Source: Betaproteobacteria bacterium (lineage in GTDB: Bacteria > Pseudomonadota > Gammaproteobacteria > Burkholderiales > SG8-39). From it: DNA of 36,941 nt. The notes beneath the pieces are model-generated. The model did no database searches and was not told the origin of the DNA. It saw only the letters and a program-made list of their open reading frames with translations. This document shows positions 10,338 through 29,360 of this stretch, piece after piece (within the stretch, counting starts at the first letter, position 1; each line of letters begins with the position of its first letter). The stretch is from the NCBI GenBank assembly GCA_029863065.1, contig JAOTWE010000003.1, positions 1-36,941 on the forward strand. Direction: 5' to 3'. The position numbers and the translations under genes are program-made.

Positions 10338-10640
10338 CTAGCGCGCCGCCTTGGGTGCCTTGTGCGACGGGTCGTTCGGATTGATGAAGATGTAGCGCCA
10401 CTCGCCCGGATTGATCTCGACGTAGTCGAGCGTGGCGCCGGTCAGCAGCTCGACGCTGCCGGGCGCGACGAGGACCGTGACGCCGTTCGAGACCGCCTGC
10501 GCATCGCCCTCGGCGCGCTCGTCGAAACCCATGCCGTACTCAATGACGCCCTTGTCATCGAGGCGCGCGGCGAGGCGCAGGCCTGCGCCGTCGGCCGATT
10601 TCAGGATCTGCGCGGCGGCCTGCGGCGTGACGGTGATCAT
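10338..10640 (-). CDS. dsrR: DsrR (IscA-like protein without cysteines)
   Basis: MITVTPQAA...LRLA...YGMGFD...LDYVE...FINPN IscA fold, no Cys at all, downstream of dsrN. Confidence 0.85.
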   Translation of the reverse strand: MITVTPQAAAQILKSADGAGLRLAARLDDKGVIEYGMGFDERAEGDAQAVSNGVTVLVAPGSVELLTGATLDYVEINPGEWRYIFINPNDPSHKAPKAAR

Positions 10641-10954
10641 CAGCCGGTGCTCCAGGCGCGCGGCCGGCGCATGCCGGCGATCTTGCAGGCCTGCTTCACG
10701 TAGCCGTAGGGAAACAGCCGGAACAGGTCATTGCGGTCCTCGCGGCCCGCGCCGCGCCAGGCGGCCAGGTGCTTCATGACATGGCGGGCATCGGGCGCGA
10801 TGTGGTGCTCGTCGTAGTACTGCCGCATGAAGCGCAGCACCACCCAGTGCGTCTCGGTGAGCGCGACGCCCTCCTTGCGCGCCAGTTCCGCGGCGAGCGC
10901 CTCGTTCCAGTCGGCGGGATCGACGAGGTAGCCTTCTTCGTCCAGCGTCGGCAT
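10640..10954 (-). CDS. DsrC/TusE-family paralogue with only the internal Cys
   Basis: LDEEGYLVDPADW...HW...FPYGYVKQACKIAG; C-terminus RPRAWSTG lacks the penultimate Cys. Confidence 0.88.
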   Translation of the reverse strand: MPTLDEEGYLVDPADWNEALAAELARKEGVALTETHWVVLRFMRQYYDEHHIAPDARHVMKHLAAWRGAGREDRNDLFRLFPYGYVKQACKIAGMRRPRAWSTG

Positions 10955-12324
10955 CAGGCGTGGGTCTGGGCGGTCGCGGCGAATTCCACGAAGCGCGCTG
11001 CCCAATGGTTTGCGGCGACGTCGCGCAGGTGCGCGTAGGACGCGAGCAGGTTCTTGTAGATGATGCCGTCATGCCGGCCGTCGATGCCGTAGCCGCGCTC
11101 AACGTCGTAGGCGAACTCCAGGCCGGGCGCGAGGTTCTCGACGCTCGAATAGTGGAACTCGTGCGCGCGGATCACCCCCGCCGGGCGCGCGGGCCACGGC
11201 CCGCAGCCGGTTTCGCGCAAGTGCACGTAGCCGCGGCCTACGGGCCGCGCGTGCATGACGATGTCGGCGGGGAGCACGCCCGCCATCTCGGCGCGGCGCC
11301 CGTTCCATTCGATGCTGCGCGCGAGGTACATCAGGCCGCCGCATTCGGCATAGGCCGGCAGACCGGATTCGATCGCGTTGCGCACCTCGGCGCGCAGCGC
11401 CGCGTTCGCGGCGAGCGCCTCCATGTGCGTCTCGGGGAACCCGCCGCCGATGAACAGGGCGTCGACGCGCGGCAGGCGCTTGTCGCGCAGCGCGTCGAAC
11501 GGCACGAGCTCCGCGCCCGCGGCGCGCAGCGCCTCCAGATCGCCCGGATAGTAAAAGCCGAAGGCGGCATCGCGCGCGACACCGATGCGCACCGGCGGAC
11601 CCCCGGTTGCAGTCCTCGCCGTCTCGGCAGCTCGCAAAGGCGCTGCCTCGCGGGAAATGGCCAGCACCTGCTCCAGATCGACCTGCGCCGCGATGCGCCC
11701 GGCGATCTCCTCCACGTGTGCGCGCGCCGCTTCGGCCTCGTTGCTCGGCACCAGCCCGAGGTGGCGCTCGACGATCGTCAGGCGCTCGTCGTACTGCACG
11801 GCGCCGAGCACCGGAACGCCGGTGTAGTGGGCGATCACGGCGCGCAGCTTCGCCTCGTGGCGCGTGCCACCGAGCTGGTTCAGGATCACGCCGGCGATAC
11901 GGATGTTCGGGTCGAATGCCTGGAAGCCGAGAATCAGCGGCGCGATGCCGCGCGTCATGCCGCGCGCGTCGATCACCAGGACCACCGGGGTGCCGGTCAT
12001 CGCCGCGAGCGCGGCGTTGCTGTTGCTGCCGTCCAGGGCGAGCCCGTCGTACAGGCCCTTGTTGCCCTCGATGATGCCGAGCGAGGCGCCGCGCATGCGC
12101 TCCACGACCTCGGCGCGGATCTCGTCCGCGCTGCTCAGATAGGGATCGAGGTTGTAGCACGGCCGCCCGGCTGCGAGCCCCAGCCACAGCGGATCGATGT
12201 AGTCCGGGCCCTTCTTGAAAGGCTGCACCGCCTCGCCGCGCGCGGCGAGCGCCGCGCACAAGCCGATGCACATCGTGGTCTTGCCCGAGGACTTGTGGGC
12301 GGCGGAGATGAACAGGCGGTTCAT
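10954..12324 (-). CDS. dsrN: DsrN siroheme amidase (CbiA/CobB-like)
   Basis: SSGKTT, FKKGPDYIDP, IEGNKGLYDG, GGGFPE, AECGGLMYL and HEFHYS; start MNRLF at 12324. Confidence 0.92.
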   Translation of the reverse strand: MNRLFISAAHKSSGKTTMCIGLCAALAARGEAVQPFKKGPDYIDPLWLGLAAGRPCYNLDPYLSSADEIRAEVVERMRGASLGIIEGNKGLYDGLALDGSNSNAALAAMTGTPVVLVIDARGMTRGIAPLILGFQAFDPNIRIAGVILNQLGGTRHEAKLRAVIAHYTGVPVLGAVQYDERLTIVERHLGLVPSNEAEAARAHVEEIAGRIAAQVDLEQVLAISREAAPLRAAETARTATGGPPVRIGVARDAAFGFYYPGDLEALRAAGAELVPFDALRDKRLPRVDALFIGGGFPETHMEALAANAALRAEVRNAIESGLPAYAECGGLMYLARSIEWNGRRAEMAGVLPADIVMHARPVGRGYVHLRETGCGPWPARPAGVIRAHEFHYSSVENLAPGLEFAYDVERGYGIDGRHDGIIYKNLLASYAHLRDVAANHWAARFVEFAATAQTHA

Positions 12325-18152: not shown

Positions 18153-18902
18153 TCAGCCTCCGCGCGCCCGCTCGACGCGCACGATGCGCGTCGACCAGCC
18201 CGCCACGTGCCGCTGCTCGCGCGCGTCGTCGACCTGGTTCAGGCTCGGGCTGAAGAACACCCCCGGCGCGTGCAGGAGCTTCGACACGGGAAAGACGATC
18301 ATCAGCGCCGCGACCAGCACGAGGTGCACGAGCAGCGCCGGGTCGGCGGGAAGCGCCCGCCAGTCGAAGACCATCAGCCCGAGGAAGAACGCCTTCAACG
18401 CGACGATGTCGGTGTGCGCGACGTACTTCATGGCGAGGCCGCTCGCGGCGATGGCGACGAGCAGCGCGAGCATCAGGTGGTCCGACGGGCTGCTGATGTA
18501 GCGCACGCGATCGACCAGAAAGCGCCGCGCCCAAAGTCCCGCGAGGCCGGCGAGCATGGCGAACCCCGCGTACACGCCGAACGGCTGCATCAGGTTGACC
18601 CAGCCCCACACCGGCTCGGTGAAATAGCGCAGGTGGCGCAACAGCACCAGCAGCAGCGCTGCGTGAAACGTCCAGCCGAACAGCCAGATCCACTTGTTGG
18701 ACCGGAACAGGGCGCGGAACAGCGTCACCTCGAGGAACATGCGCAGCACGACGCCGCCGCGCGTCGTCGGCGCCGGCGGGATCGGGATCTTCAGCGGCTG
18801 CGGGGTGCGCGCGTACACCCAGCACCGCCAGCCCACGCCGGCGACGAGCGCCGCCGCCGCGACGTAGAACAGCAGCGCGTAGATGAGGGTCAGCGCGGAC
18901 AC
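18153..18902 (-). CDS. dsrM: DsrM b-type cytochrome
   Basis: PLKIPIPPAP, FH...RHLRYF, RYISSPSD and SKLLHAPGVFFSP. Confidence 0.95.
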   Translation of the reverse strand: MSALTLIYALLFYVAAAALVAGVGWRCWVYARTPQPLKIPIPPAPTTRGGVVLRMFLEVTLFRALFRSNKWIWLFGWTFHAALLLVLLRHLRYFTEPVWGWVNLMQPFGVYAGFAMLAGLAGLWARRFLVDRVRYISSPSDHLMLALLVAIAASGLAMKYVAHTDIVALKAFFLGLMVFDWRALPADPALLVHLVLVAALMIVFPVSKLLHAPGVFFSPSLNQVDDAREQRHVAGWSTRIVRVERARGG

Positions 18903-18918: not shown

Positions 18919-19251
18919 CTACACGCAGCCGGTCGGCTTGGGCAGCCCCGCGTACTTGCAGGCCTGCTTGGCGGGGCCGTACGGAAACAGCTCGTACAGG
19001 TACTTGCTGTTGCCCTTGTCCGCGCCGAGCTTCTTGCCGATGGCCTTGGTCAGCACGCGCACTGCCGGCGCGATCTGGTACTCGTCGTAGTACTCGCGCA
19101 GGAAGTTGAGCACTTCCCAGTGGTTCTGGGTCAGCTCGCAGCTGTCGAGCCGCGCCATTTCCTTCGCCACGTCCTCGCTCCAGTCGGTGCGGTTCGCGAG
19201 ATAGCCTTCCTCGTCGGTCTCGATGGTCTTGCCGTCCATTTCGATGGGCAT
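18919..19251 (-). CDS. dsrC: DsrC (canonical, two C-terminal cysteines)
   Basis: FPYGPAKQACKYAGLPKPTGCV. Confidence 0.97.
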   Translation of the reverse strand: MPIEMDGKTIETDEEGYLANRTDWSEDVAKEMARLDSCELTQNHWEVLNFLREYYDEYQIAPAVRVLTKAIGKKLGADKGNSKYLYELFPYGPAKQACKYAGLPKPTGCV

Positions 19252-19583: not shown

Positions 19584-19967
19584 TCAGAAGCTCAGGATCA
19601 CGTCCTGCGCTTCCATGATCTCGGCCATGCGTTCGGCGTCCACCACCTCGACCGGCACCACGAGGTCGGATTCGCTCAGCCCGCGTGCCTCGAGCGCCTC
19701 CTTCTCCACGTAGAGCTTGGTGACGTCGTAGTCCTCCAGGGCGCGGAACGCAGGCGAGAAGTTCTTCACTTCCAGTGCCTTGGTGTCCTGGCCCTTCGTC
19801 AGCTGGTACACGCCGTCGCCCAGGAACGCGAGGCTCACGTCCTGCTCGAACGCGGCGCCGATCAGCACCACTTCCAGCGACTCGAGCGCATAGAGGGTGC
19901 CGTAGGGCGCCCTGCGGTTCACGTACAGGAAGCGCTTGGCGACGCTGCCTGCGTTTTCCTCAGTCAC
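19584..19967 (-). CDS. dsrF: DsrF
   Basis: RRAPYGTLYALESLE...FLGDGVYQL...QDVILSF; GTG start at 19967. Confidence 0.93.
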   Translation of the reverse strand: MTEENAGSVAKRFLYVNRRAPYGTLYALESLEVVLIGAAFEQDVSLAFLGDGVYQLTKGQDTKALEVKNFSPAFRALEDYDVTKLYVEKEALEARGLSESDLVVPVEVVDAERMAEIMEAQDVILSF

Positions 19968-20352
19968 CGAACACCACCAACCGGTCGGACTGGATGCCGG
20001 CTTCGATGAGCTGTCCCAGGCCCGAGATGCGAAAGCCCGGCGCGATGTTGTCGGCATCCTTGCCGTTGCGCTTGGCCTCGCTCTTGTCCATCAGCCCGCG
20101 GCGCTGCGCGGCGGCGATGCACACCACGAGATCGAGCTTGTGCTCGGCGGCGAGCTCGCTCCAGCGCTTGACGATGTTGCGGTCGTCCTGCGGCGGCACG
20201 GTGAGCCGCGTGCCGTTGTTCACGCCGTCGTGATAGAAGAACACGCGGTAGATCTCGTGCCCCTTCGCCAGCGCGGCCTTGACGAACTGGTAGGCGGTGT
20301 CCGAGGCCTCGTGGGTATAGGGCCCTTCGTTCACGAGGATGCCGAATTTCAT
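19960..20352 (-). CDS. dsrE: DsrE sulfurtransferase
   Basis: GPYTHEASD, VFFYHDGV, CIAAAQRRG and SGLGQL. Confidence 0.96.
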   Translation of the reverse strand: MKFGILVNEGPYTHEASDTAYQFVKAALAKGHEIYRVFFYHDGVNNGTRLTVPPQDDRNIVKRWSELAAEHKLDLVVCIAAAQRRGLMDKSEAKRNGKDADNIAPGFRISGLGQLIEAGIQSDRLVVFGD

Positions 20353-20364
20353 GCCGCCGCGCGC

Positions 20365-21459
20365 CTAGAAGCGGATGTGCGCCGAGGCGTTGAGGCTGTT
20401 CCTCGCGCCGCGCCAATTGTCGATGTGGAACTTGGTGAACGGCAGCCCCGTGAGCTCGAAAAAGCGCGGCCAGCCGATGCGCTCCACCCAGTCGCCGACG
20501 CGCTCCCAGTCGCGCGCATCCTTCTTGTACGTGTAGAGGATCTTCTTCACCACTGCGGCCACCTCGGGCCAGCGCGGCGGGTTGTTGGGCAGCCCGGCCG
20601 CCACCAGCTTCTGGAACATGGGCTTGGAGCGGGCGTTGGAATTCTTGCCGCCGACCCAGATGGCGAGCTTGGAATGCTCCGGGTCGTTGATCTGCATCGG
20701 CGGGCACGGCGGATAGCAGGCGCCGCAGCAGATGCATTTCTTCTCGTCCACCTCCAGCGAGGGCTTGCCGTTGACGATCGCCGGGCGGATCGCCGCCACC
20801 GGGCAGCGCGCCACCACGGAAGGGCGCTCGCACACGTTCGCCACGAGGTCGTGGTTGATCTTGGGGGGCTTGGTGTGCTGCACGTTGATCGCGATGTCGC
20901 CCTGGCCGCCGCAGTTGATCTGGCAGCAGGAGGTTGTGATGTGCACGCGGTTGGGCATCTCCTCCTTGATGAACTCTTCATACAGCTCGTCCATCAGCGA
21001 CTTCACCACGCCCGAGGCATCCGTCCCCGGGATGTCGCAGTGCAGCCAGCCCTGGGTGTGCGAGATCATGGTCACCGAGTTGCCGGTGCCGCCGACCGGG
21101 TAGCCCGCGTCGTTGAAGGCCTGGATCAGCGGGCCGACCTTGTCCCAGCTGGAGACCATCACCTCCAGGTTCGAGCGGATGGTGAATCGGACGAACCCCT
21201 CGCCGTACTTGTCGATGATGTCGCACAGCAGGTTGATCTCGTACGGACCGAGCTGGCGCTGCGTGCCGACGCGCACCGTCCAGATCTCGTCGCCCGAGTA
21301 GGCGACGTGGTGCAGCACGCCCGGGCGCGGTCGGTCGTGGTACTTCCAGTTGCCGAAGTTCTTGATCATCAGCGGATGCATGTACTGCATGCCGTCGGGA
21401 CACCCGCTCTCGATCGGCGCTCGCATCTGCTTCTTCTCGATTACCTGTGCTTGTGCCAC
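20365..21459 (-). CDS. dsrB: Reverse dissimilatory sulfite reductase beta subunit
   Basis: HTQGWLHCDIP, SCCQINCGG, CICCGACYPPCP, NNPPRWPE and C-terminal SAHIRF. Confidence 0.97.
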   Translation of the reverse strand: MAQAQVIEKKQMRAPIESGCPDGMQYMHPLMIKNFGNWKYHDRPRPGVLHHVAYSGDEIWTVRVGTQRQLGPYEINLLCDIIDKYGEGFVRFTIRSNLEVMVSSWDKVGPLIQAFNDAGYPVGGTGNSVTMISHTQGWLHCDIPGTDASGVVKSLMDELYEEFIKEEMPNRVHITTSCCQINCGGQGDIAINVQHTKPPKINHDLVANVCERPSVVARCPVAAIRPAIVNGKPSLEVDEKKCICCGACYPPCPPMQINDPEHSKLAIWVGGKNSNARSKPMFQKLVAAGLPNNPPRWPEVAAVVKKILYTYKKDARDWERVGDWVERIGWPRFFELTGLPFTKFHIDNWRGARNSLNASAHIRF

Positions 21460-21480: not shown

Positions 21481-22785
21481 TCAGGCCGCCGACTTCTGCT
21501 GGCGATCGATCCACTTCTGCGCTTCCTTGTCCCAGTCGTCCAGGCGCACGTAGGAGCTGGTGCGCGGGTGCGTGATCATGTTCGGGTCGACCTCGACGCC
21601 GATGCCCTCGAGGAAGCTCGCCAGGCCGATGCGCTCGATCATTTCGCCGCAGCGCTCGTGCTCGAGGCCGTTCTCCGCCCAGAAATCGATCACCGTGGCG
21701 GCGAGCTCGCGCAGTTTCTCGTAGTCCTCGTCGGTCTCCATCTTCATGAACGGCACGATCACCGTGCCCATGGTGTCGCCGATCTTGAGTGTGCGCTTGC
21801 CGCCGATGAGCAGCGTGATGCCGCGGTCCTTGCCGGGCTTCAAGGCCTTGGTCATGACGTTGATGCAGTGCATGCAGCGCACGCAGCTCTTGTTGTCGAC
21901 TTCCAGCGTATCGTCGTCGTTGAGCGAGAGCGCCTTCGTCGGGCAGCGCGCGATCACGTTGTCGATCGTGTACTTGCGGCCGTGGCCCGCGACATATTCC
22001 TTCACGCCCTTCTGGTCGACCTGCATGTCGTCGCGCCAGGTGCCGATGACGGCGAAGTCGGCGCGCTGGATCGAGTTCATGCAGTCGTTGGGGCAGCCCG
22101 AGACCTTGAACTTGAACTTGTAGGGCAGCGCCGGGCGGTGCATGTCGTCGATGAAGTTGTTGACGAGCGTCCGGTGGATGCGGTGCTCGTTGGTGCACGA
22201 CTGCTCGCAGCGCGCCGCGCCGACGCAGGACATCGCGGTGCGCACGCAGGGGCCCGCGCCGCCCAGGTCGAAGCCGTACTCGTTGATCTCGTCGAAGAAA
22301 TGCTGCGTGTTCTCGCTCGTCGAGCCGATGAACATGATGTTGCCGGTCTGGCCGTGGAACGCGATCAGGCCGGAGCCCCACTTGCTCCACGAGCCCGAGA
22401 GCTGGCGCAGGAGCTTGGTCGTGTAGTGGTTGCCCGCCGGCGGCTGCACGCGCAGCGTATGAAATTCCTTGGACTCCGGGAACATGCTCGCCACTTCGGA
22501 AAAGCGCGGGATGATGCCGCCGCCATAGCCGAACACCGAGACGGTGCCGCCCTTCCAGTAGCCGAGGCGCGTCTTGTAGGAATGCTCGAGCTGGCCGAGC
22601 AGGTCGACCATCATGTTGTTGTCGTGCGCGAGGCGCTTCAGGCCGGTGACGAAGCTCGGCCAGGGGCCGCTCTCGAGCTGGTCGAGCATGGGCGTCGGAT
22701 GGAAGGCCTTGCTGGACTTCTTCTCCTTGGGCAAAAACGTGCTGTGCCGCTCAGGATTCTTGGGCGGCGTGCGGGCGTCGGACAT
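21481..22785 (-). CDS. dsrA: Reverse dissimilatory sulfite reductase alpha subunit
   Basis: TPMLDQLESGPWPSFV, WKGG, CVGAARC, KFKFKVSGCPNDC and CVRCMHCIN; AGGAGG RBS upstream. Confidence 0.97.
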   Translation of the reverse strand: MSDARTPPKNPERHSTFLPKEKKSSKAFHPTPMLDQLESGPWPSFVTGLKRLAHDNNMMVDLLGQLEHSYKTRLGYWKGGTVSVFGYGGGIIPRFSEVASMFPESKEFHTLRVQPPAGNHYTTKLLRQLSGSWSKWGSGLIAFHGQTGNIMFIGSTSENTQHFFDEINEYGFDLGGAGPCVRTAMSCVGAARCEQSCTNEHRIHRTLVNNFIDDMHRPALPYKFKFKVSGCPNDCMNSIQRADFAVIGTWRDDMQVDQKGVKEYVAGHGRKYTIDNVIARCPTKALSLNDDDTLEVDNKSCVRCMHCINVMTKALKPGKDRGITLLIGGKRTLKIGDTMGTVIVPFMKMETDEDYEKLRELAATVIDFWAENGLEHERCGEMIERIGLASFLEGIGVEVDPNMITHPRTSSYVRLDDWDKEAQKWIDRQQKSAA

Positions 22786-22939
22786 CGCTTCCCTCCTCAG
22801 GGTGCGGAATCGAACCCTGCAAGTGTAATGAGGACACCTTCCGCGCAGGCCTGAATTTGGGGATAGACCGCAACGGCCACCCTCCCCCTTTGGAGATATA
22901 GGGCTTGCTTATGACCCAAGCGGCGGCAAATGGGGTAGC

Positions 22940-23842
22940 GTGTCACGCGCCTTGATTGCCGTCCTGCAGAAAGAATCTCCTTACGACCTCGACCGGCCGC
23001 AGGCCTACCTGCGCTGGCGCGACGAGAAGCTCGCGCGCTACCCGCGAAGCGCCGAGGCGCTGATTGTGGAGGTACGCGACCCGCGGGCGTTGAGCGACAG
23101 CGAGGCCGCGCACATCCGCCGCGTGTGCGCCGCGGCGAACATGGCGGTCTACGCGAGCCCGCTCGCCGGCGTGGCCGACAAGGACATTCCGCGCCGTCTC
23201 GGCGCGCGGCTGGGCCTCGAGCGCCTTCAGGCCAACCCGCTCGCGGACGAGGACGGCATCAGCTCGCTCGAAGTGACGGCGGAAAAGTCCGGCCGGGGCT
23301 ACGTCCCGTACTCCAACCGGCGGCTGCTCTGGCACACCGACGGCTACTACAACCCGCCCGGGAGCCGCATCCGCGCCTTCCTCCTGCACTGCGTACGCCC
23401 CGCGGCCGCGGGCGGCGAGAACCGCCTGCTCGATCCGGAGATCGCCTACATCCTGTTGCGCGACGCCGATCCGCGATATGTCAGGGCGCTGTCGGCCCCG
23501 GACGCCATGACCGTGCCGGCGAACGAGGAGGATCCGACCTTGCAGCGCGCTGCGCAGACGGGCCCGGTCTTCTCCTTTGAAGACGGAGCGCTGCACATGC
23601 GCTACACCGCGCGCACGCGCAGCATCGAATGGCGACAGGACGCGGCCACGCAGGCCGCGGTGAAGCGCCTGCGCGAGATCCTCGACTCCGACTCGCCGTA
23701 CGTCTTCCGGCTGAGGCTCTCGGGCGGCCAGGGCCTGGTGTGCAACAACGTGCTGCACGATCGCAGCGAATTCACGGACGCGCCGGGCGCGAGCCGGCTG
23801 GTCTACCGCGCCCGTTACGCGGACCGCATCGGCCCGGCATGA
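22940..23842 (+). CDS. TauD/TfdA-like Fe(II)/2-oxoglutarate dioxygenase
   Basis: WHTDGYY...LLHCVRPA..GGEN...NNVLHDR...R (HxD...H facial triad). Confidence 0.82.
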   Translation: MSRALIAVLQKESPYDLDRPQAYLRWRDEKLARYPRSAEALIVEVRDPRALSDSEAAHIRRVCAAANMAVYASPLAGVADKDIPRRLGARLGLERLQANPLADEDGISSLEVTAEKSGRGYVPYSNRRLLWHTDGYYNPPGSRIRAFLLHCVRPAAAGGENRLLDPEIAYILLRDADPRYVRALSAPDAMTVPANEEDPTLQRAAQTGPVFSFEDGALHMRYTARTRSIEWRQDAATQAAVKRLREILDSDSPYVFRLRLSGGQGLVCNNVLHDRSEFTDAPGASRLVYRARYADRIGPA

Positions 23843-24561
23843 GGACCTTCCCGCTCAAGTACATCAAGGAAAGCGCCGCCGTCGGCAACGCCGACGACAG
23901 CAGCGACGCAGCTGAGGAGACCGGGAAGCTCAAGCGCCTGGTGGCCGGCGTGCGCGAGGAGCTCGAGGCGCTCTCCCCCGGCGCCGCGCCGCTGCGGCGC
24001 GCGGACCTTCTGCTGCAGCTCGGCCGCGCGCTCGTGCGGCTCGAGCAGCGCGCCGAGGCCTGGGCCGCCGCGCGCGAGGCGTTCGATTTCTACCTGGCCG
24101 AGCAGGCCTGGGAAGGCGCGGCGCAAGCCTGCGACATCCTGTTCCTCGCCGACCAGCCGCAATCGCTCGCCGCGCTCGGCCAAGGCATCTGGCTCGCGGT
24201 GACCTATCCGGTGGATCCCGAGCTGAGCGTCGCGCTGCTGCAGCACGTGGTGGACGAGACGCCGCCCGATGCCGACGGCGCGGCGGTGGCCGCCGTCACG
24301 GCCTGCTACCTCGTCGACCTGCGCGCGCAGGAGCCGCAGCGCGAACACCTGCTGCTCTACACCAACCAGGTGCTCGCCACGGTGGCGCGACGGCATAGCG
24401 GCGTCGACGGCCAGGATTCTTTCAACCGCTGGATCGAGGACATGGAGCTGAGCGACCCGGCGCTGTTCCTGCCGCGGCTGCGGAACGTGGTCGATGTCCT
24501 GGTGCAGGACGAGTGGTGGTTCGACCGCGATGCCCTGCAGGCGGCGCTGCCCGCGGACTGA
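23839..24561 (+). CDS. TPR-like alpha-helical hypothetical protein
   Basis: ATGA overlap with the upstream gene; LLQLGRALVRLEQRAEAWAAAREA TPR-like repeat; host-like codon usage. Confidence 0.65.
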   Translation: MRTFPLKYIKESAAVGNADDSSDAAEETGKLKRLVAGVREELEALSPGAAPLRRADLLLQLGRALVRLEQRAEAWAAAREAFDFYLAEQAWEGAAQACDILFLADQPQSLAALGQGIWLAVTYPVDPELSVALLQHVVDETPPDADGAAVAAVTACYLVDLRAQEPQREHLLLYTNQVLATVARRHSGVDGQDSFNRWIEDMELSDPALFLPRLRNVVDVLVQDEWWFDRDALQAALPAD

Positions 24562-24562
24562 G

Positions 24563-25213
24563 ATGGACGACGTCGTGGACGCGGTGTTCGCGATCGAGTG
24601 CCGCAGCCTGCCGGTCGATCATGCCTACGCGCTCTCCGCGGCGATCCAGGCGGCGCTGCCGTGGTTCGCGGACGAGCCGCAGGCCGGGCTGCACACCGTG
24701 CACGGCGCGGCTTCGGGCGCGGGCTGGGTGCGGCCCGAGGGCGAGGAGGCGGTGCTGCAGCTTTCCCGGCGCACGAGGCTCGTGCTGCGGCTCCCCGGGC
24801 ATCGCATGGCAGACGCGGCGGCGCTCACCGGGCAGACCCTGGATATCGCCGGCTGTCCGCTGCGCGTGGGCCGGCTGTCTACGCGCCCGCTCCTGCGCAT
24901 CGCGTCGCTCTTCTCGCGCAGCGTGATCTTCGAGGGCGCGGCCGACGAAGCGGCGTTCGTCGCCGCCGCGAACGAAGGACTGTGTGCGCTCGGCGTCTCG
25001 GCCTCGACGATGCTCTGCGGCCGCGAGGTCGCGCTCGCCACGCCGCAAGGTGCCTACCGCACGCGCAGCCTGATGCTGACGGTCGCGACGCCCGCGCAGT
25101 CTTTGCTGCTCCAGCGCCAAGGCCTGGGCGAGGCGCGCAAGCTCGGCTGCGGTGTCTTCATCCCCCACAAGGACGTCGGCGACCTGCGTCCCACGCCGCT
25201 GGAAGCTTTTTGA
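24563..25213 (+). CDS. cas6: Orphan Cas6/Cmx6-like RAMP endoribonuclease homologue
   Basis: N-terminal VDAVFxxxxxxLPVDHAYAL and C-terminal Gly-rich loop QGLGEARKLGCGVFIP, as recalled for type I-MYXAN Cas6; 216 aa. Confidence 0.82.
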   Translation: MDDVVDAVFAIECRSLPVDHAYALSAAIQAALPWFADEPQAGLHTVHGAASGAGWVRPEGEEAVLQLSRRTRLVLRLPGHRMADAAALTGQTLDIAGCPLRVGRLSTRPLLRIASLFSRSVIFEGAADEAAFVAAANEGLCALGVSASTMLCGREVALATPQGAYRTRSLMLTVATPAQSLLLQRQGLGEARKLGCGVFIPHKDVGDLRPTPLEAF

Positions 25214-25250
25214 AGATTCCCATCGTGATCCGGCTTCAGGAGAAAGGACC

Positions 25251-25592
25251 ATGACGTACGAAGTGAACGGCAAGACCCTCGAGGCGACCGAGAACGGCTA
25301 CCTGGTGAACGCCGACGACTGGGACAAGGACGTCGCGCAGGCGATCGCCGCCGCGGAAGGGCTTTCACTCACCCAGGATCACTGGGACGTGATCGAGTAC
25401 CTGCGCGACGCCTGGTTCACCCACAACGGCGAGCAGCCCAACAACCGCGCCATCCTCAAGGCCATGCAGGACAAGTGGTCCGGGCGCAAGGTGGACAACA
25501 AGACGCTGTTCGATCTCTACCCGGGCAATCCATCCAAGCAGGCGGGCAAGGTCGCGGGGCTTCCCGAGAGCCTGCGCAAGGGCGGGTACTGA
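25251..25592 (+). CDS. DsrC/TusE-family paralogue with no cysteine
   Basis: ENGYLVNADDW...LTQDHWDVIEYLR...YPGNPSKQAGKVAGLP; AGGAGAAAGG RBS. Confidence 0.88.
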   Translation: MTYEVNGKTLEATENGYLVNADDWDKDVAQAIAAAEGLSLTQDHWDVIEYLRDAWFTHNGEQPNNRAILKAMQDKWSGRKVDNKTLFDLYPGNPSKQAGKVAGLPESLRKGGY

Positions 25593-25613
25593 CGCGCGCC
25601 GCTCGGAGCGCGA

Positions 25614-26483
25614 TCACCTTTTCGGTCCACCCGGTCCGGATTGCGAGCCGCCTGCTGTCCCCAATCCGATGTCGCGGCGCTGATCGAACACGACGTAGGA
25701 GATGGGCGCCGTCGGCTCGTAGCCGATGCGCTTGCGACGCGATTCGGCGAGCAGGTGATAGCGTACCTGCGCCTCGATCGTCGCCGCGCGAGCAGGCACA
25801 TCAAGTGTGTAGCGTCGCCGCTCGCCCCACGCCAGGCGCGTATCCCAGAGATCCACGATGAACGGCCGCCACAGGATGGTGCGCTCAAGCGTATCGGTCG
25901 TCTCGCGCAACACCCGACCACCGGCATCGAGCGCGCGCAGTCGCACCGTCAGGTGGCGATCCGGGGTCCCTGTGGGAAGGAAATGCGCGGCGCCGGTGTT
26001 CTCCAGCACCAGCGCGGCGATGCGCCCGCCGCCAGAAGCGATTGAATCCGAAAACGAGGCAGTAAGAGCCGAGCGCACCATCTGCGGATCGTGTCCGCCG
26101 CGCCAGGTGTGACGGCGTACCAATCGCGCGCTGCCGCCTTCAACGAGCGGGCGCTCAAGCGCGGGCATGTGGCATTGCACGCAGCCCGCGGCGGCCGGAC
26201 TGCGCACCAGGTACTCCCCGCTGCGGCCTTTGAGGCGACCTTGCCCGACCTCGATCTCGGCAATGGTCCCGCAGGGCGGCAGGCGATAAAAAGTGTCCCA
26301 GCGCTCGCCTTGAACGACGTGGCAGCGCATGCACAAGGCATTGGCATCGGAGAACTTCTCGACCGGGTGCGGTGCGTTCGGGCTGCCCCTCGGCCCCAGA
26401 ATCCTGCCCTCGCGCAGATGGCAGCCGGCACAGGTGACGCCTTCCTGCTTCAGGGCCGGATCGAAATCCGGGTTCGGCGCGAG
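25614..26483 (-). pseudogene. 3' fragment of a multiheme cytochrome c, 5' end cut by the IS3 element
   Basis: EGVTCAGCH, CMRCH, CVQCHMP, HTWRGGHD and AHFLPTG motifs; the frame runs directly into the IS left end; no signal peptide or native start. Confidence 0.8.
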
Positions 26484-26552
26484 TGAACTGACCGGCCTTT
26501 TCTGTACCAGGTTGAGAGTTGTAGAGTTCAACTTGGAAGAAGGATCAGGCAG

Positions 26553-26831
26553 ATGGCACACAAGAAGTTCAGTCCCGAGCAGGTGGTGGCGAAGCTGCGG
26601 CAGATCGAAGTGCGGCAGGCAGGCGGGAAGTCTATTGCACAGGCGTGTAAAGATGCCGGGGTTACGGATGTCACGTACTACCGCTGGCGCAAGGAGTACG
26701 GGGGCCTGAAGGCCAACCAGGCGAAGAAGCTGAAGGATCTGGAGCGGGAGAATCAGAGGCTGAAGAAGCTGGTGGCGGACCTGTCCCTTGAGAAGGCGAT
26801 CCTGAAGGACGTGGCCGAGGGAAACTTCTAA
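26553..26831 (+). CDS. IS3 transposase OrfA (HTH)
   Basis: FSPEQVV...[11 protein letters not shown]...[18 protein letters not shown]. Confidence 0.93.
26819..26825 (+). other. -1 programmed ribosomal frameshift heptamer joining OrfA to OrfB
   Basis: G GGA AAC (X XXY YYZ pattern) in the OrfA frame two codons before its stop. Confidence 0.75.
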
Positions 26832-26854
26832 GCCCCGAGCGGCGGCGCAAGGCC

Positions 26855-27691
26855 GTGGCACATGCTCGGGGCAAATACGGGGTGTCGGAGAGAAAGGCCT
26901 GTGCGGTGCTTGCGCAGCCGCGCGGCACGCAGCGCTATGTACCAACGGTGCGTGCCAACGAGGACCTGCTTACGCAGGCGATTGTGGGTCTTGCCTGCCA
27001 GTACGGGCGCTACGGGTACCGGATGATCACGGGAATGCTCAAGCTGGGCGGCTGGCGCGTGGGCAAGGACCGGGTGAGCCGGATCTGGAGGAAGGAAGGG
27101 CTGAAGGTGCCCAAGAAGCAAAAGCCCCGAGCAAGGCTGTGGTTGAACGACGGCAGTTGCGTGCGGCTACGGGCCGAGCAGGCGAACCACGTTTGGAGCT
27201 ATGACTTCGTGACCACCTGGACCCATGACGGTCGGCCGGTTCGCCTGCTTACGCTGATCGATGAGCATACGCGGGAGTGCCTGGCGATCCTGGTGGCAAG
27301 GAGCATCGGCGCCCAGGAGGTGATTGAGCTCTTGGCCGAGGTCATGCTCACCAGAGGAATCCCCGAGCACATCCGCTCGGACAACGGCCCTGAATTCACC
27401 GCCAAAGCGCTACGCGAGTGGCTGCAGCGGATCGGCGCCAAGACGCTCTACATCGCACCAGGCAGTCCCTGGGAGAATGGCTACTGCGAGAGCTTCAACG
27501 GCACGCTCAGGGACGAACTGCTCAATGGCGAAATCTTCTACAGCCTGAACGAGGCTCGCATCGTGATCGAGCGCTGGCGCAGCGAATACAACCAGATCAG
27601 GCCCCACAGTTCGCTTGGCTACAGGCCGCCGGCACCGGCGGCCTGTAGCCCGCACCCTCTCATGCTCGCGCAGCCGGTGATGGTGCAGTAA
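26855..27691 (+). CDS. IS3 transposase OrfB (DDE integrase core)
   Basis: [36 protein letters not shown] and [12 protein letters not shown]. Confidence 0.95.
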
Positions 27692-27961: not shown

Positions 27962-28684
27962 ATGCGTATTGCGATCCTCGAAGACGATCCCGACCAGCTT
28001 GCTCTGCTGAAACGATTTCTCTCCGACCGTGGGCACGACCTGCACGGCTATCTGTGGGGGTGCGAGATCATGCGCGAGGCGGCGCGCGAAAGCTTCGACC
28101 TTTACGTGCTCGACTGGCAGGTCCCCGACGTCTCGGGCATCGACGTATTGCGCTGGATCCGCGGGAACGTCTCGACGACCGTGCCGATCCTATTCGTCAC
28201 GATCCGCGACACGGAAGAGGACATCGTTTTTGCACTCGAAGCCGGTGCCGACGACTACATGATCAAACCCGTGCGCAACCAAGAGCTAAACGCGCGCGTC
28301 AACGCGCTTCAGCGCCGCGCCTACCCGGCGGCCAAAGAGAATCTGATCGCTGCGCCACCATTCGAGATCGACCTGTCGAAAGGGGAGATCCGGCGCGGCG
28401 ATTTGCGGGTCGAACTGACCCCCAAGGAGTTCGACCTCGCGGCCATGCTCTTTCGCAACGTTGGCCGCCTGCTTTCGCGCGGCCATTTGCAGGAGACCGT
28501 CTGGGGGCGAATGGGCGAGCTTGCCACGCGCACCGTCGACACCCACGTCAGCCAGATCCGCAAGAAGCTCGATCTGGACTCGGCGTCGGGCTACAGGATC
28601 GCGCCGATCTACAACTACGGCTATCGTCTCGAGCGTTTGAGCGAATCCGGATCCGGCGCCGCCGTGGGAGTTGCAGCGCGGTAA
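27962..28684 (+). CDS. Orphan OmpR/PhoB-family response regulator
   Basis: ILEDD, LDWQVPDVSG and GADDYMIKP; LTPKEFDL...TRTVDTHVSQIRKKL...YNYGYRL. Confidence 0.92.
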   Translation: MRIAILEDDPDQLALLKRFLSDRGHDLHGYLWGCEIMREAARESFDLYVLDWQVPDVSGIDVLRWIRGNVSTTVPILFVTIRDTEEDIVFALEAGADDYMIKPVRNQELNARVNALQRRAYPAAKENLIAAPPFEIDLSKGEIRRGDLRVELTPKEFDLAAMLFRNVGRLLSRGHLQETVWGRMGELATRTVDTHVSQIRKKLDLDSASGYRIAPIYNYGYRLERLSESGSGAAVGVAAR

Positions 28685-28752: not shown

Positions 28753-29073
28753 TCACTCGTAGTGCTTCCGCTCCGCCCGCCTCCTCCCCACCCGCTGCAC
28801 CACACCCCCGCGAATGGTGTAAGGCGGCGTCAGCTCGAAGCTGCCGTACTTGGGATTGAGAGGCTTCAAGAACCGCCGCTCGCCGTCGTACACCAACTGC
28901 CGAAAAAACACATCCCCCGCATACTCCACCACCACGTAACCCCCGTTCTTCGGCGCATACCCCGGATCGACGATGACGACGCAGCCGTCGGCGAACTCCG
29001 GCTCCATGCTGTCCCCGAGCACGCGTAGCGCGTAGGGCTCGAGCGCGCTGCAGCTGCCTTCCACCGTCGCCAC
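28753..29073 (-). CDS. Stand-alone S24-peptidase-like domain protein
   Basis: YALRVLGDSMEPEF.DG.VVIVDP...LKPLNPKY; no HTH; GTG start after GGAGAAG. Confidence 0.78.
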   Translation of the reverse strand: MATVEGSCSALEPYALRVLGDSMEPEFADGCVVIVDPGYAPKNGGYVVVEYAGDVFFRQLVYDGERRFLKPLNPKYGSFELTPPYTIRGGVVQRVGRRRAERKHYE

Positions 29074-29075
29074 GG

Positions 29076-29360
29076 CTACTTCTCCTCCGTAGGCTTGCGC
29101 GGATGCAGCCGCACCACCGACTCCGTACGCGGCTCGTCGACATAGCGCGGCCGCGCCTCCTTCACCCCGCCCGCCGCCTCGGCCAGCTCGCGCTCGCGCG
29201 CGCTGATCAGTGCCAGGCACTGGCGCAGGTCCTCGATGGTCGAGTCCGAAAGCGGATGGCGCATGCCGTGCGGCGTCGCCGTGTCCTTGATCACCGCCGC
29301 GAGCGTCATCTTCACCGCCTGCAGGATGCGCGCCTCGACAGACTGTTGCGGATCGCTCAT
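29076..29360 (-). CDS. Conserved hypothetical small helical protein
   Basis: VIKDTATPHGMRHPLSDSTIEDLRQCLALISARERELAE; tight operon packing. Confidence 0.7.
   Translation of the reverse strand: MSDPQQSVEARILQAVKMTLAAVIKDTATPHGMRHPLSDSTIEDLRQCLALISARERELAEAAGGVKEARPRYVDEPRTESVVRLHPRKPTEEK

Follow-up and report, generated by a model that had tools for sequence, protein, structure and literature searches.

We analysed a stretch of 36,941 nucleotides (nt) from a bacterium of the order Burkholderiales (contig JAOTWE010000003.1, assembly GCA_029863065.1; hereafter the window), in which a gene for a CRISPR-associated protein of the Cas6 family (CRISPR, clusters of short palindromic repeats interspaced at regular intervals) lies in a run of four plus-strand genes beside a dsr operon. 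The run begins with a TauD-like open reading frame (ORF), dsrQ (22940-23842; GTG start, 300 residues; PF02668, 68.5 bits, E 1.1e-18), which is followed by an ORF for a helical protein (23839-24561; 240 residues, no Pfam or NCBIfam match), by the Cas6-family ORF (24563-25213; 216 residues, PF09559 and TIGR02807), and by an ORF for a cysteine-free DsrC-like protein of the RspA type (25251-25592; 113 residues; PF04358, 112.1 bits; TIGR03342, 100.9 bits). The start of the helical ORF overlaps the stop of the tauD-like gene by 4 bp (ATGA), and a single base pair separates it from the Cas6 ORF. On the minus strand, dsrA (21481-22785; TIGR02064, 599.9 bits) is the first gene of an oxidative dsrABEF...C...M operon that continues with dsrB (20365-21459), dsrE (19960-20352), dsrF (19584-19958; PF02635), the canonical dsrC (18919-19251) and dsrM (18153-18902). 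The divergent intergenic region between dsrA and dsrQ spans 22786-22939, or 154 bp.

An earlier note on this DNA, made from the letters alone, had described an intact 216-residue ORF with two motifs, a tight run of TauD-like, helical, cas6 and cysteine-free DsrC paralogue genes, and a divergent stretch of about 154 bp shared with dsrA. Each of these was verified, including the overlap and the 1-bp gap, with LPVDHAYAL close to the N-terminus of the Cas6 ORF and GLGEARKLGCG close to its C-terminus.

Family and fold of the Cas6 protein

The product of 24563-25213 is a true Cas6/Cmx6-family protein by sequence and by fold. It matched PF09559 with 195.1 bits (cut-off 26.7) and TIGR02807 (cas6_cmx6, the type I-MYXAN Cas6/Cmx6 equivalog) with 125.5 bits (cut-off 98.85), and a sequence search of the PDB returned 8fcj_B as the sole match (E 1.7e-12). 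We aligned 75 dsr-linked Cas6 relatives (A1), across which the motif G187-x-G189-x-x-R192-x-x-G195-C-G197 is kept, and AlphaFold2 gave a model with a mean predicted local distance difference test score (pLDDT) of 92.5. The top Foldseek matches of this model in the PDB were 8fcu_B and 8fcj_B, the Cas6 chains of a type I-B CRISPR-associated transposon Cascade (template modelling (TM) score 0.79, E 1.6e-16). Ranks 3-10 were Cas6 chains or a Cas6-related protein of other subtypes, and the lower rows held Cas6e, Cse3 and a few Cmr3 chains. The earlier note had assigned the protein to Cas6 and had named the lack of a RAMP fold as an objection to its own reading; the assignment held against both profiles, and the predicted fold is that of Cas6, with a TM score of 0.79 to 8fcu_B. 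Named close relatives carry the source names "CRISPR-associated protein Cas6" or "type I-MYXAN ... Cas6/Cmx6".

Linkage to dsr

Synteny was surveyed in two sets of loci. A species-level pattern scan, with one genome per species, gave 64 loci (the Cas6 match could be used in 62), drawn from Burkholderiales/Casimicrobiaceae-like, Thiobacillus, Sulfuricella, Hydrogenophilales, Chromatiaceae, Thiohalomonas, Lamprocystis and Halorhodospira records. A further 40 loci, ranging from 32 to 72% GC, were fetched from an even draw of 400 other genomes of the window's class, which left out the window genome itself (the class draw); 39 of them remained after one CRISPR-type locus (L121) had been set aside. 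All locus counts take in only those loci with room to show the feature in question.

A divergent dsrA lay within 4.5 kb of the Cas6 gene in 52 of 53 pattern-scan loci and in 27 of 34 class-draw loci, a survey that confirmed a conserved linkage to dsr. The DsrC-like gene stood directly downstream of Cas6 in 57 of 60 pattern-scan loci, 31 of 39 class-draw loci and seven of the eight loci from the window's genus, and in that genus the run adjoined dsrA in all eight fetched loci (one from a frameshift-ridden assembly). The helical gene was found just upstream of Cas6 less often (43/58 and 17/38 loci in the two sets). An upstream dsrQ was seen in 39 of 54 pattern-scan loci, and a dsrQ anywhere in the locus in 47; it was not upstream of cas6 in the other 15 of the 54, nor in 9 of 38 class-draw loci. 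Several Chromatiaceae- and Lamprocystis-type loci are missing dsrQ, and in the Thiobacillus-type arrangement it lies 1.6-2 kb downstream. We take the DsrC-like gene to be the constant partner of the Cas6 gene, with DsrQ and the helical protein as common companions that can be dispensed with.

The Cas6/DsrC-like pair beside dsrA recurs from 32% to 72% GC, and one locus (L117) keeps the arrangement in a 1.1-Mb genome of 34% GC. In the unlinked cases (L111, L115, L118, L119 and others) dsrA was still present elsewhere in the genome, at distances from Cas6 of tens to hundreds of kb. One locus (L085, genome G409) has dsrE directly upstream of Cas6 with no dsrAB between them and dsrA on another contig, and we therefore regard it as rearranged. 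At three loci far from dsrA, an rnc (RNase III)-era pair lies back to back with the dsr-type Cas6 gene (L069:9249-10621, L118:8184-9623 and L119:9046-10431); all three are from low-GC genomes, two of which (L118 and L119) share a family (f168).

Co-occurrence with DsrA

Across the class draw, PF09559 was present in 124 and DsrA (at E <= 1e-30) in 126 of the 400 genomes: 119 had both, five had Cas6 only, seven had DsrA only and 269 had neither, figures that are counts rather than a statistical test, since kin are not independent. When two genomes with CRISPR-type Cas6 are set aside, 119 of the 122 holders of dsr-type Cas6 also have DsrA. In the three that remain (G172, G207 and G298) the neighbourhood is of the dsr type but lies on contigs that are short or cut; one of them, G207, is 100% complete and has no DsrA above E 1e-13, its dsrQ-cas6-dsrC-like run being cut by a contig end (L113). 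The same tracking is seen within the window's genus, where among 24 other members 11 have both genes, 12 have neither, none has DsrA only and one, a genome that is 61% complete, has Cas6 only. All 16 other sampled families of the window's order lack both (28 with neither for genus and order together). The earlier note had called this gene an orphan, which understates what was found, namely a class-wide paralogous clade present in 122 of the 400 genomes.

Outside the class, we examined a separate draw of 250 genomes from the phylum, composed differently from the class draw. DsrA was above the cut-off in 53 of these and at E <= 1e-30 in 54, and PF09559 was found in one. Twelve loci were fetched from this draw. 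Ten of them (L127-L136; same phylum, other class) have one or two dsrAB copies with DsrA 51-56% identical, no adjacent dsrE and no PF09559 gene; they may be of oxidative or reductive type.

Independence from CRISPR-Cas

The dsr-type Cas6 gene is independent of CRISPR. The window genome (3.07 Mb in 360 contigs, 94.1% complete) has a single PF09559 match, and profile searches of that genome found no Cas1, no DevR/Cas7 and no Cmx8; Cas3 core was absent above the cut-off, with just three weak helicase matches at 20-38 bits. In a k-mer scan the window's contig showed no array and the genome as a whole only three regions of three copies each, all on other contigs, although for a genome in 360 contigs an unassembled array remains possible. 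The absence of an array from the contig and the CRISPR-independence proposed in the earlier note were borne out, the latter also by the distribution of the subtype signature described below.

By chance the class draw included a complete type I-MYXAN locus (L121:1-14572, genome G061), which served as a positive control for both the Cmx8 search and the array scanner. It holds an array of 21 repeats with a 36-nt unit, together with genes for a PF09559 Cas6, Cas3, Cmx8, Cas7, Cas5, Cas4-Cas1 and Cas2. Its Cas6 scores 187.7 bits against TIGR02807 and is 28% identical to the window protein. Cmx8 was detected in only two of the 400 class-draw genomes (G061 and the unpublished G348); both have PF09559 and no DsrA, and neither carries a dsr-type Cas6 gene. 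Among the loci fetched, none had an array or repeat-like sequence next to a dsr-type Cas6 gene, with the limit that drafts may miss unassembled arrays; in dsr-type loci the sole match of the scanner was a three-copy run in L095, which lies about 7 kb away from Cas6. The 1.1-Mb genome G227 has the dsr-type gene with no Cas1 and no Cmx8. Of five small complete genomes with the dsr-type gene, four have Cas1 somewhere, 85 to about 850 kb off.

These observations bear on the reading that would keep the protein in its ordinary role, as a crRNA-processing Cas6 that serves an array and effector elsewhere in the genome and stands by dsr incidentally. Such a reading can draw on profile scores that exceed the curated Cas6/Cmx6 cut-offs, on the distant Cas1 in four of the five small complete genomes, and on the 360 contigs of a window genome that is 94% complete, arrays being often lost in assembly. 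It has to be set against a subtype signature confined to two genomes that both have the CRISPR-linked Cas6, against a gene whose presence follows DsrA even inside one genus, against the lack of Cas1 and Cmx8 in both G227 and the window genome (and of Cas7 in the latter), against the lack of arrays adjoining the dsr-type genes in the fetched loci, and against the separation of the dsr-linked proteins into a clade of their own that has lost residues conserved in Cmx6. We consider this reading already largely refuted and extremely improbable.

Divergence of the dsr-type clade

To place the dsr-linked proteins we made a quick IQ-TREE search, unrooted and with SH-aLRT (Shimodaira-Hasegawa-like approximate likelihood ratio test) support only, of the 75 proteins in A1 and 40 relatives of the L121 protein. 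The 40 are labelled as CRISPR-type from their likeness to the L121 protein and their source names, genomic context having been seen for L121 only. One branch with an SH-aLRT of 100 splits the dsr-linked from the Cmx6-like proteins, and the former stand apart from array-linked Cas6 as the earlier note's reading had implied.

The two clades have in common D19, H20, R76, Q184, G187, G189, R192, G195, C196, G197 and F199. Residues conserved in the CRISPR-linked members may contribute to RNA binding and catalysis, and of these H20, R76 and R192 persist in the dsr clade. Conserved in the dsr clade only are W34, H44, H47, A49, S51, R70, R81, E129, H202 and K203, and this clade also has a nine-residue insert that holds W55 and R57. 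Its conserved basic residues are R57, R70, R81 and K203, with R119 and R168 at 81-84%. Many members outside the window's own clade carry an acidic N-terminal extension, M-Y/F-W-x-E/D-D.

The ORFs are intact: there are 107 complete Cas6 ORFs in L013-L124 (the CRISPR-type L121 included), and the sole broken case is in the frameshift-ridden assembly. About 30 positions are nearly invariant across genomes of 32-72% GC. In eight pairs of the window with relatives, the ratio of nonsynonymous to synonymous substitution rates (dN/dS) was 0.29-0.45 for Cas6 and 0.16-0.31 for the neighbouring genes, and Cas6 is 65-86% identical to the window protein where DsrA is 91-97% identical. By these ratios the dsr-type Cas6 is under purifying selection that is looser than that on its neighbours, and we take the divergence to mean that the binding surface was rebuilt on a core that stayed conserved, rather than that the protein is decaying.

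The alternative would be a passenger, that is, a decaying or neutral remnant of an old CRISPR locus, carried along with a mobile block of dsr genes without any function in it. Its faster evolution than that of its neighbours, with the highest dN/dS of the four genes and the lower identity noted above, is what a passenger would lead one to expect, and dsr genes do come and go within the genus as would a transferable block. The intact ORFs, the dN/dS values themselves and the near-invariant positions speak against it, however, as do the retention of the gene in a 1.1-Mb genome and a co-occurrence with dsrA that persists where the two lie tens to hundreds of kb apart. On this evidence we think a passenger very unlikely.

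Companion genes

The DsrC-like protein of the window has no cysteine and ends AGLPESLRKGGY, that is, in RKGGY, and we filed it as RspA type for these two reasons. It is acidic (isoelectric point, pI, about 5) and 42% identical to the DsrC of the operon up to AGLP. The true DsrC there ends AGLPKPTGCV (CKYAGLPKPTGCV) with both C-terminal cysteines present; the two cysteines of this arm (...C-x10-C-V) are absent from the 25251-25592 product. K110, G111, G112 and Y113 are invariant in an alignment of 75 DsrC-like sequences (A2). The relatives L013, L014 and L026 carry the K-G-G-Y DsrC-like gene twice, with 1-2 kb between the first copy and the one downstream, and the window has a single copy. Other genes can lie between the Cas6 and DsrC-like genes: one sub-clade (L021-L032) has a conserved opposite-strand ORF of about 130 residues (MFDPITLPFGAKMLFNTVKLKPG...; for example L021:10670-11136), and L084 has an ORF (10589-11130) with two TusA-like CPxP motifs in tandem, a putative sulfurtransferase inside the module of that lineage.

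In DsrQ, a TauD/TfdA-family Fe(II)/2-oxoglutarate dioxygenase, the residues H132, D134 and H273 (the iron triad) and R286 and R290 (the 2-oxoglutarate arginines) are invariant in 44 orthologues (A4). The helical protein was modelled by AlphaFold2 as an all-alpha structure of 11 helices (pLDDT 90.8) with no Foldseek match in the PDB at E <= 0.001. Weak rows (E >= 0.011) were to tetratricopeptide repeat (TPR), 14-3-3 and NASP-type solenoids, and the named neighbours in the ESM Atlas were TPR clusters at 0.83-0.84, which we take as a lead only. On these models the protein may be described as loosely TPR-like and as a candidate scaffold.

A short way downstream of the module lies an IS3-type insertion sequence (26553-27691, plus strand; an HTH_Tnp_1 ORF and an rve ORF). 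A minus-strand ORF with CXXCH motifs and a weak PF09699 match (25614-26945) runs into this element and may be a multihaem cytochrome gene that the element has interrupted. Beyond it are genes for an OmpR-type response regulator (27962-28684, plus strand) and an S24 (LexA/UmuD-like) peptidase (28753-29220, minus strand), for which we saw no link to the module.

Searches for regulatory signals

We looked for an RNA target of the protein and for related signals. A consensus scan of 22500-26200 gave no promoter-like site, and no sigma-70-like site in the dsrA/dsrQ region. A terminator scan of the same interval gave one terminator-like site, on the minus strand inside the helical gene, which scored below the mean of shuffled sequences. 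The intergenic region holds three direct copies of a TTTGGRGATAG-like word (22856-22866, 22888-22905 and 22929-22939), which on the dsrA strand reads CTATCYCCAAA, a TATCYCC-type repeat; these repeats look like an operator. A 7-mer enrichment over 300 nt lying upstream of dsrA, taken from 88 loci, returned the motifs CTATCCC and TATCTCCAAAGGG, which keep fixed places in the window's own clade only; the count of 27 of 80 for them mostly reflects relatives, the dereplication having been too lax.

Loci of the Chromatiaceae type (L048-L052, L056, L057, L059, L061, L062 and L083) share, upstream of their DsrC-like gene, a box of the form TCACAAAATCATAAAATTCCCAAGCTTTGAT, which looks like a separate promoter, so that the Cas6/DsrC-like pair may not always form one transcript. 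Contigs from four metatranscriptome runs cover all four genes of the module, one of them bridging the Cas6 and DsrC-like genes. Such contigs cannot show transcripts, their ends or their levels, DNA may be present in the libraries, and the word shares were 0.08-0.13; as a weak hint, the four genes may be expressed in relatives of the window organism.

A proposed accessory of Dsr sulfur oxidation

We consider it very likely that the dsr-type Cas6 is a CRISPR-free paralogue now dedicated, as an accessory, to the oxidative (reverse) Dsr pathway in this class; this Cas6 relative is probably an unrecognised helper of Dsr sulfur oxidation. The explanation that we favour goes further, and we offer it as a whole, mechanism included, only tentatively. 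The protein would have retained the Cas6 core (His20, Arg76 and the glycine-rich loop with Arg192) in order to bind a specific RNA, and its recognition surface would have been rebuilt for a new RNA target. Together with the DsrC-like protein it would then set the level or processing of dsr transcripts post-transcriptionally, more probably as an RNA binder than as an efficient nuclease. We favour RNA because those core residues survive. Also on the side of RNA are the other residues common to both clades, the conserved basic residues that the dsr clade has of its own and, as a hint only, the rnc-era neighbourhood in one low-GC lineage; the metatranscriptome contigs over the four genes add a little. 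This mechanism of retained RNA binding, a new target and an effect on dsr expression jointly with the DsrC-like protein, which we infer, seems to us possible rather than probable.

A number of observations weigh against this explanation. Ten residues that are near-invariant in CRISPR-linked Cmx6 (H36, R47, R49, Y50, K91, R131, R155, K163, R191 and K193) have been lost in the dsr clade, the median net charge is -2 as against +5.5 in the CRISPR-linked proteins (median pI 6.5 against 9.4), and some Thiobacillus-like members have N, S or Y where His20 itself would stand. Rfam gave no match in the window at the gathering threshold. The dsrA leader in the window's clade is just about 30 nt after a TACACT box, and two of the three intergenic repeats keep their places, -113 and -80 relative to the dsrA ATG, only within that clade. 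The gaps that separate Cas6 from the DsrC-like gene, which measure 40-320 nt over 53 loci, share no hairpin and hold other genes or a promoter-like box, and no sequence resembling the L121 repeat (<=9 substitutions in 36 nt) occurs in 2.0 Mb of other loci. Reduced genomes shed regulators, and the retention of the gene in a reduced 1.1-Mb genome is not what a regulator would lead one to expect. The link to the pathway has its own limits: kinship makes the two-by-two table of the class draw overstate its statistical strength, seven DsrA genomes of that draw (55-99% complete) do not have the Cas6 gene, and neither do 53 of the 54 DsrA genomes of the phylum draw, all outside the class. Two of the 12 loci fetched from the latter are oxidative-type, with dsrABE and a divergent dsrQ, yet neither Cas6 nor a K-G-G-Y DsrC-like gene is close by. 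Because of these seven genomes within the class and 53 outside it, the module is an accessory restricted to the class, not a part that all reverse Dsr systems share. The earlier note had gone on to propose an RNA-processing regulator of dsr transcripts, and here it fared worst: no conserved RNA target was found, and about ten Cmx6 residues and the basic charge have gone.

Much of the same evidence fits a recruitment to Dsr that does without RNA, in which the Cas6 fold would serve as a platform on the Dsr machinery for binding protein or a small anion. It might hold or present the cysteine-free DsrC paralogue, whose K-G-G-Y arm replaces the cysteine-bearing arm of DsrC, and help to assemble, chaperone or allosterically modulate rDsrAB, DsrEFH or DsrMK. 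All of the linkage and phyletic evidence applies equally to such a role, and the lost basic surface residues and positive charge, the gene kept at 1.1 Mb and the lack of a conserved RNA element that told against RNA count in its favour. The residues specific to the clade (W34, H44, H47, W55, R57, H202 and K203) and the insert point to a new ligand, the constant partner comes from a family known, in the available text of PMC8477390, for protein-protein sulfur relay, and a scaffold-like helical protein is often encoded alongside. There is also a precedent within Dsr, the accessible part of PMC8794893 describing DsrD as an allosteric activator of DsrAB. What such a role explains less easily is the conservation of His20, Arg76 and the glycine-rich loop with Arg192, which is easier to account for under nucleic-acid or phosphate binding; the protein contact is supposition only, and absence from the seven DsrA genomes in the class and the 53 outside it means that the protein is no core subunit. 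We regard a role at the protein level as nearly as likely as one through RNA, and it too is a possibility that we hold with some doubt.

A bolder version of the RNA-binding explanation would unite the dsr-type Cas6 with the K-G-G-Y DsrC paralogue in a CRISPR-derived ribonucleoprotein switch, in which Cas6 binds and perhaps cuts a dsr transcript and the DsrC-like partner, similar to the sulfur carrier of the pathway, reports the state of the sulfur relay. We think this unlikely, and mention it for what would follow: a former immune RNase would control a core energy pathway in most reverse-Dsr oxidisers of the class, reduced-genome symbionts included.

Relation to published work and to known systems

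Names already exist for two genes of the run. In the portions of text available to us, a tauD-like gene upstream of dsrA is called dsrQ, credited to Lenk 2012, and may release sulfite from sulfonates (PMC7596348); MHY1_00078 is TauD/DsrQ and MHY1_00075 a DsrC-like "regulatory sulfur-related protein", dsrAB being 00079-80, and MHY1_00076 and 00077 go unmentioned in the main text (PMC9371685). Within the same limits, the function of dsrQ is treated as unknown or speculative (PMC7596348, PMC9371685), the family is named DsrC/TusE/RspA with the cysteine-free paralogues as RspA (PMC8477390), and a regulatory role has been proposed for these (PMC9371685). The literature that we searched held no text that links a Cas6-family gene to dsr and none that mentions the helical protein, and the words Cas6 and CRISPR are absent from the searchable parts of PMC7596348, PMC9371685, PMC8477390 and PMC10504309, with the reservation that supplements, such as tables covering MHY1_00076/77, may already name the Cas6 gene. 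Genome papers that have both Cas6 and dsr treat Cas6 in separate CRISPR sections. The "undescribed system" of the earlier note stands in part: the tauD-like gene is dsrQ (PMC7596348) and the cysteine-free DsrC is RspA (PMC8477390, PMC9371685), and it is the Cas6 and helical members that go unmentioned in searchable text. The finding is stronger than at first reading in being class-wide and in tracking dsr, and weaker on the RNA role and in that two members were named before.

Reverse Dsr is a major route of microbial sulfur oxidation, at work in sediments and groundwater, in oxygen-minimum zones and in chemosynthetic symbioses. The gene pair goes with dsrAB in 119 of the 126 DsrA genomes of the class draw and is kept at 1.1 Mb; it may be a missing working part of this pathway. 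The Cas6 clade could serve as a marker of oxidative-type Dsr in the window's class. If our explanation is true, it would offer a clear example of Cas recruitment to a metabolic role outside defence. There is also a problem of annotation, because the window protein clears the TIGR02807 cut-off and its relatives are named Cas6: the clade may be tallied among orphan cas genes in CRISPR surveys and missed in metabolic ones.

Among known systems, the Cas6 proteins of types I-MYXAN and I-B (L121 and 8fcj_B/8fcu_B) belong to the same curated family as the dsr-type protein and have the same two-RRM fold. The type I-MYXAN locus has an array, Cmx8, Cas7, Cas5, Cas3 and Cas1 beside its cas6, whereas none of these stands beside the dsr-type gene, and the CRISPR-linked Cmx6 proteins are basic where the dsr-type proteins are near-neutral and add an insert and new conserved W, H, R and K positions. 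As to DsrD of sulfate and sulfite reducers, the likeness is one of analogy only, in that a small protein is encoded with dsrAB and marks one direction of the pathway. DsrD has a winged-helix fold like that of nucleic-acid binders. That fold is unrelated to the Cas6 paralogue, DsrD belongs to the reductive-type pathway, and a contact of the Cas6 paralogue with DsrAB is supposition. The window's DsrC-like protein resembles RspA-type paralogues in matching PF04358 and TIGR03342 and in having no cysteine. Its subgroup differs from DsrC proper in the K-G-G-Y end that takes the place of G-C-V, and from RspA as described in the invariance of that end and in a fixed place after a Cas6-family gene, neither of which we saw described in the portions of the literature available. 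The gene at 22940-23842 has the same family, position and orientation as known dsrQ. Published accounts, as far as their accessible text goes, have dsrQ alone or with a DsrC-like gene, and to these the window adds a Cas6-family gene and a helical gene in between.

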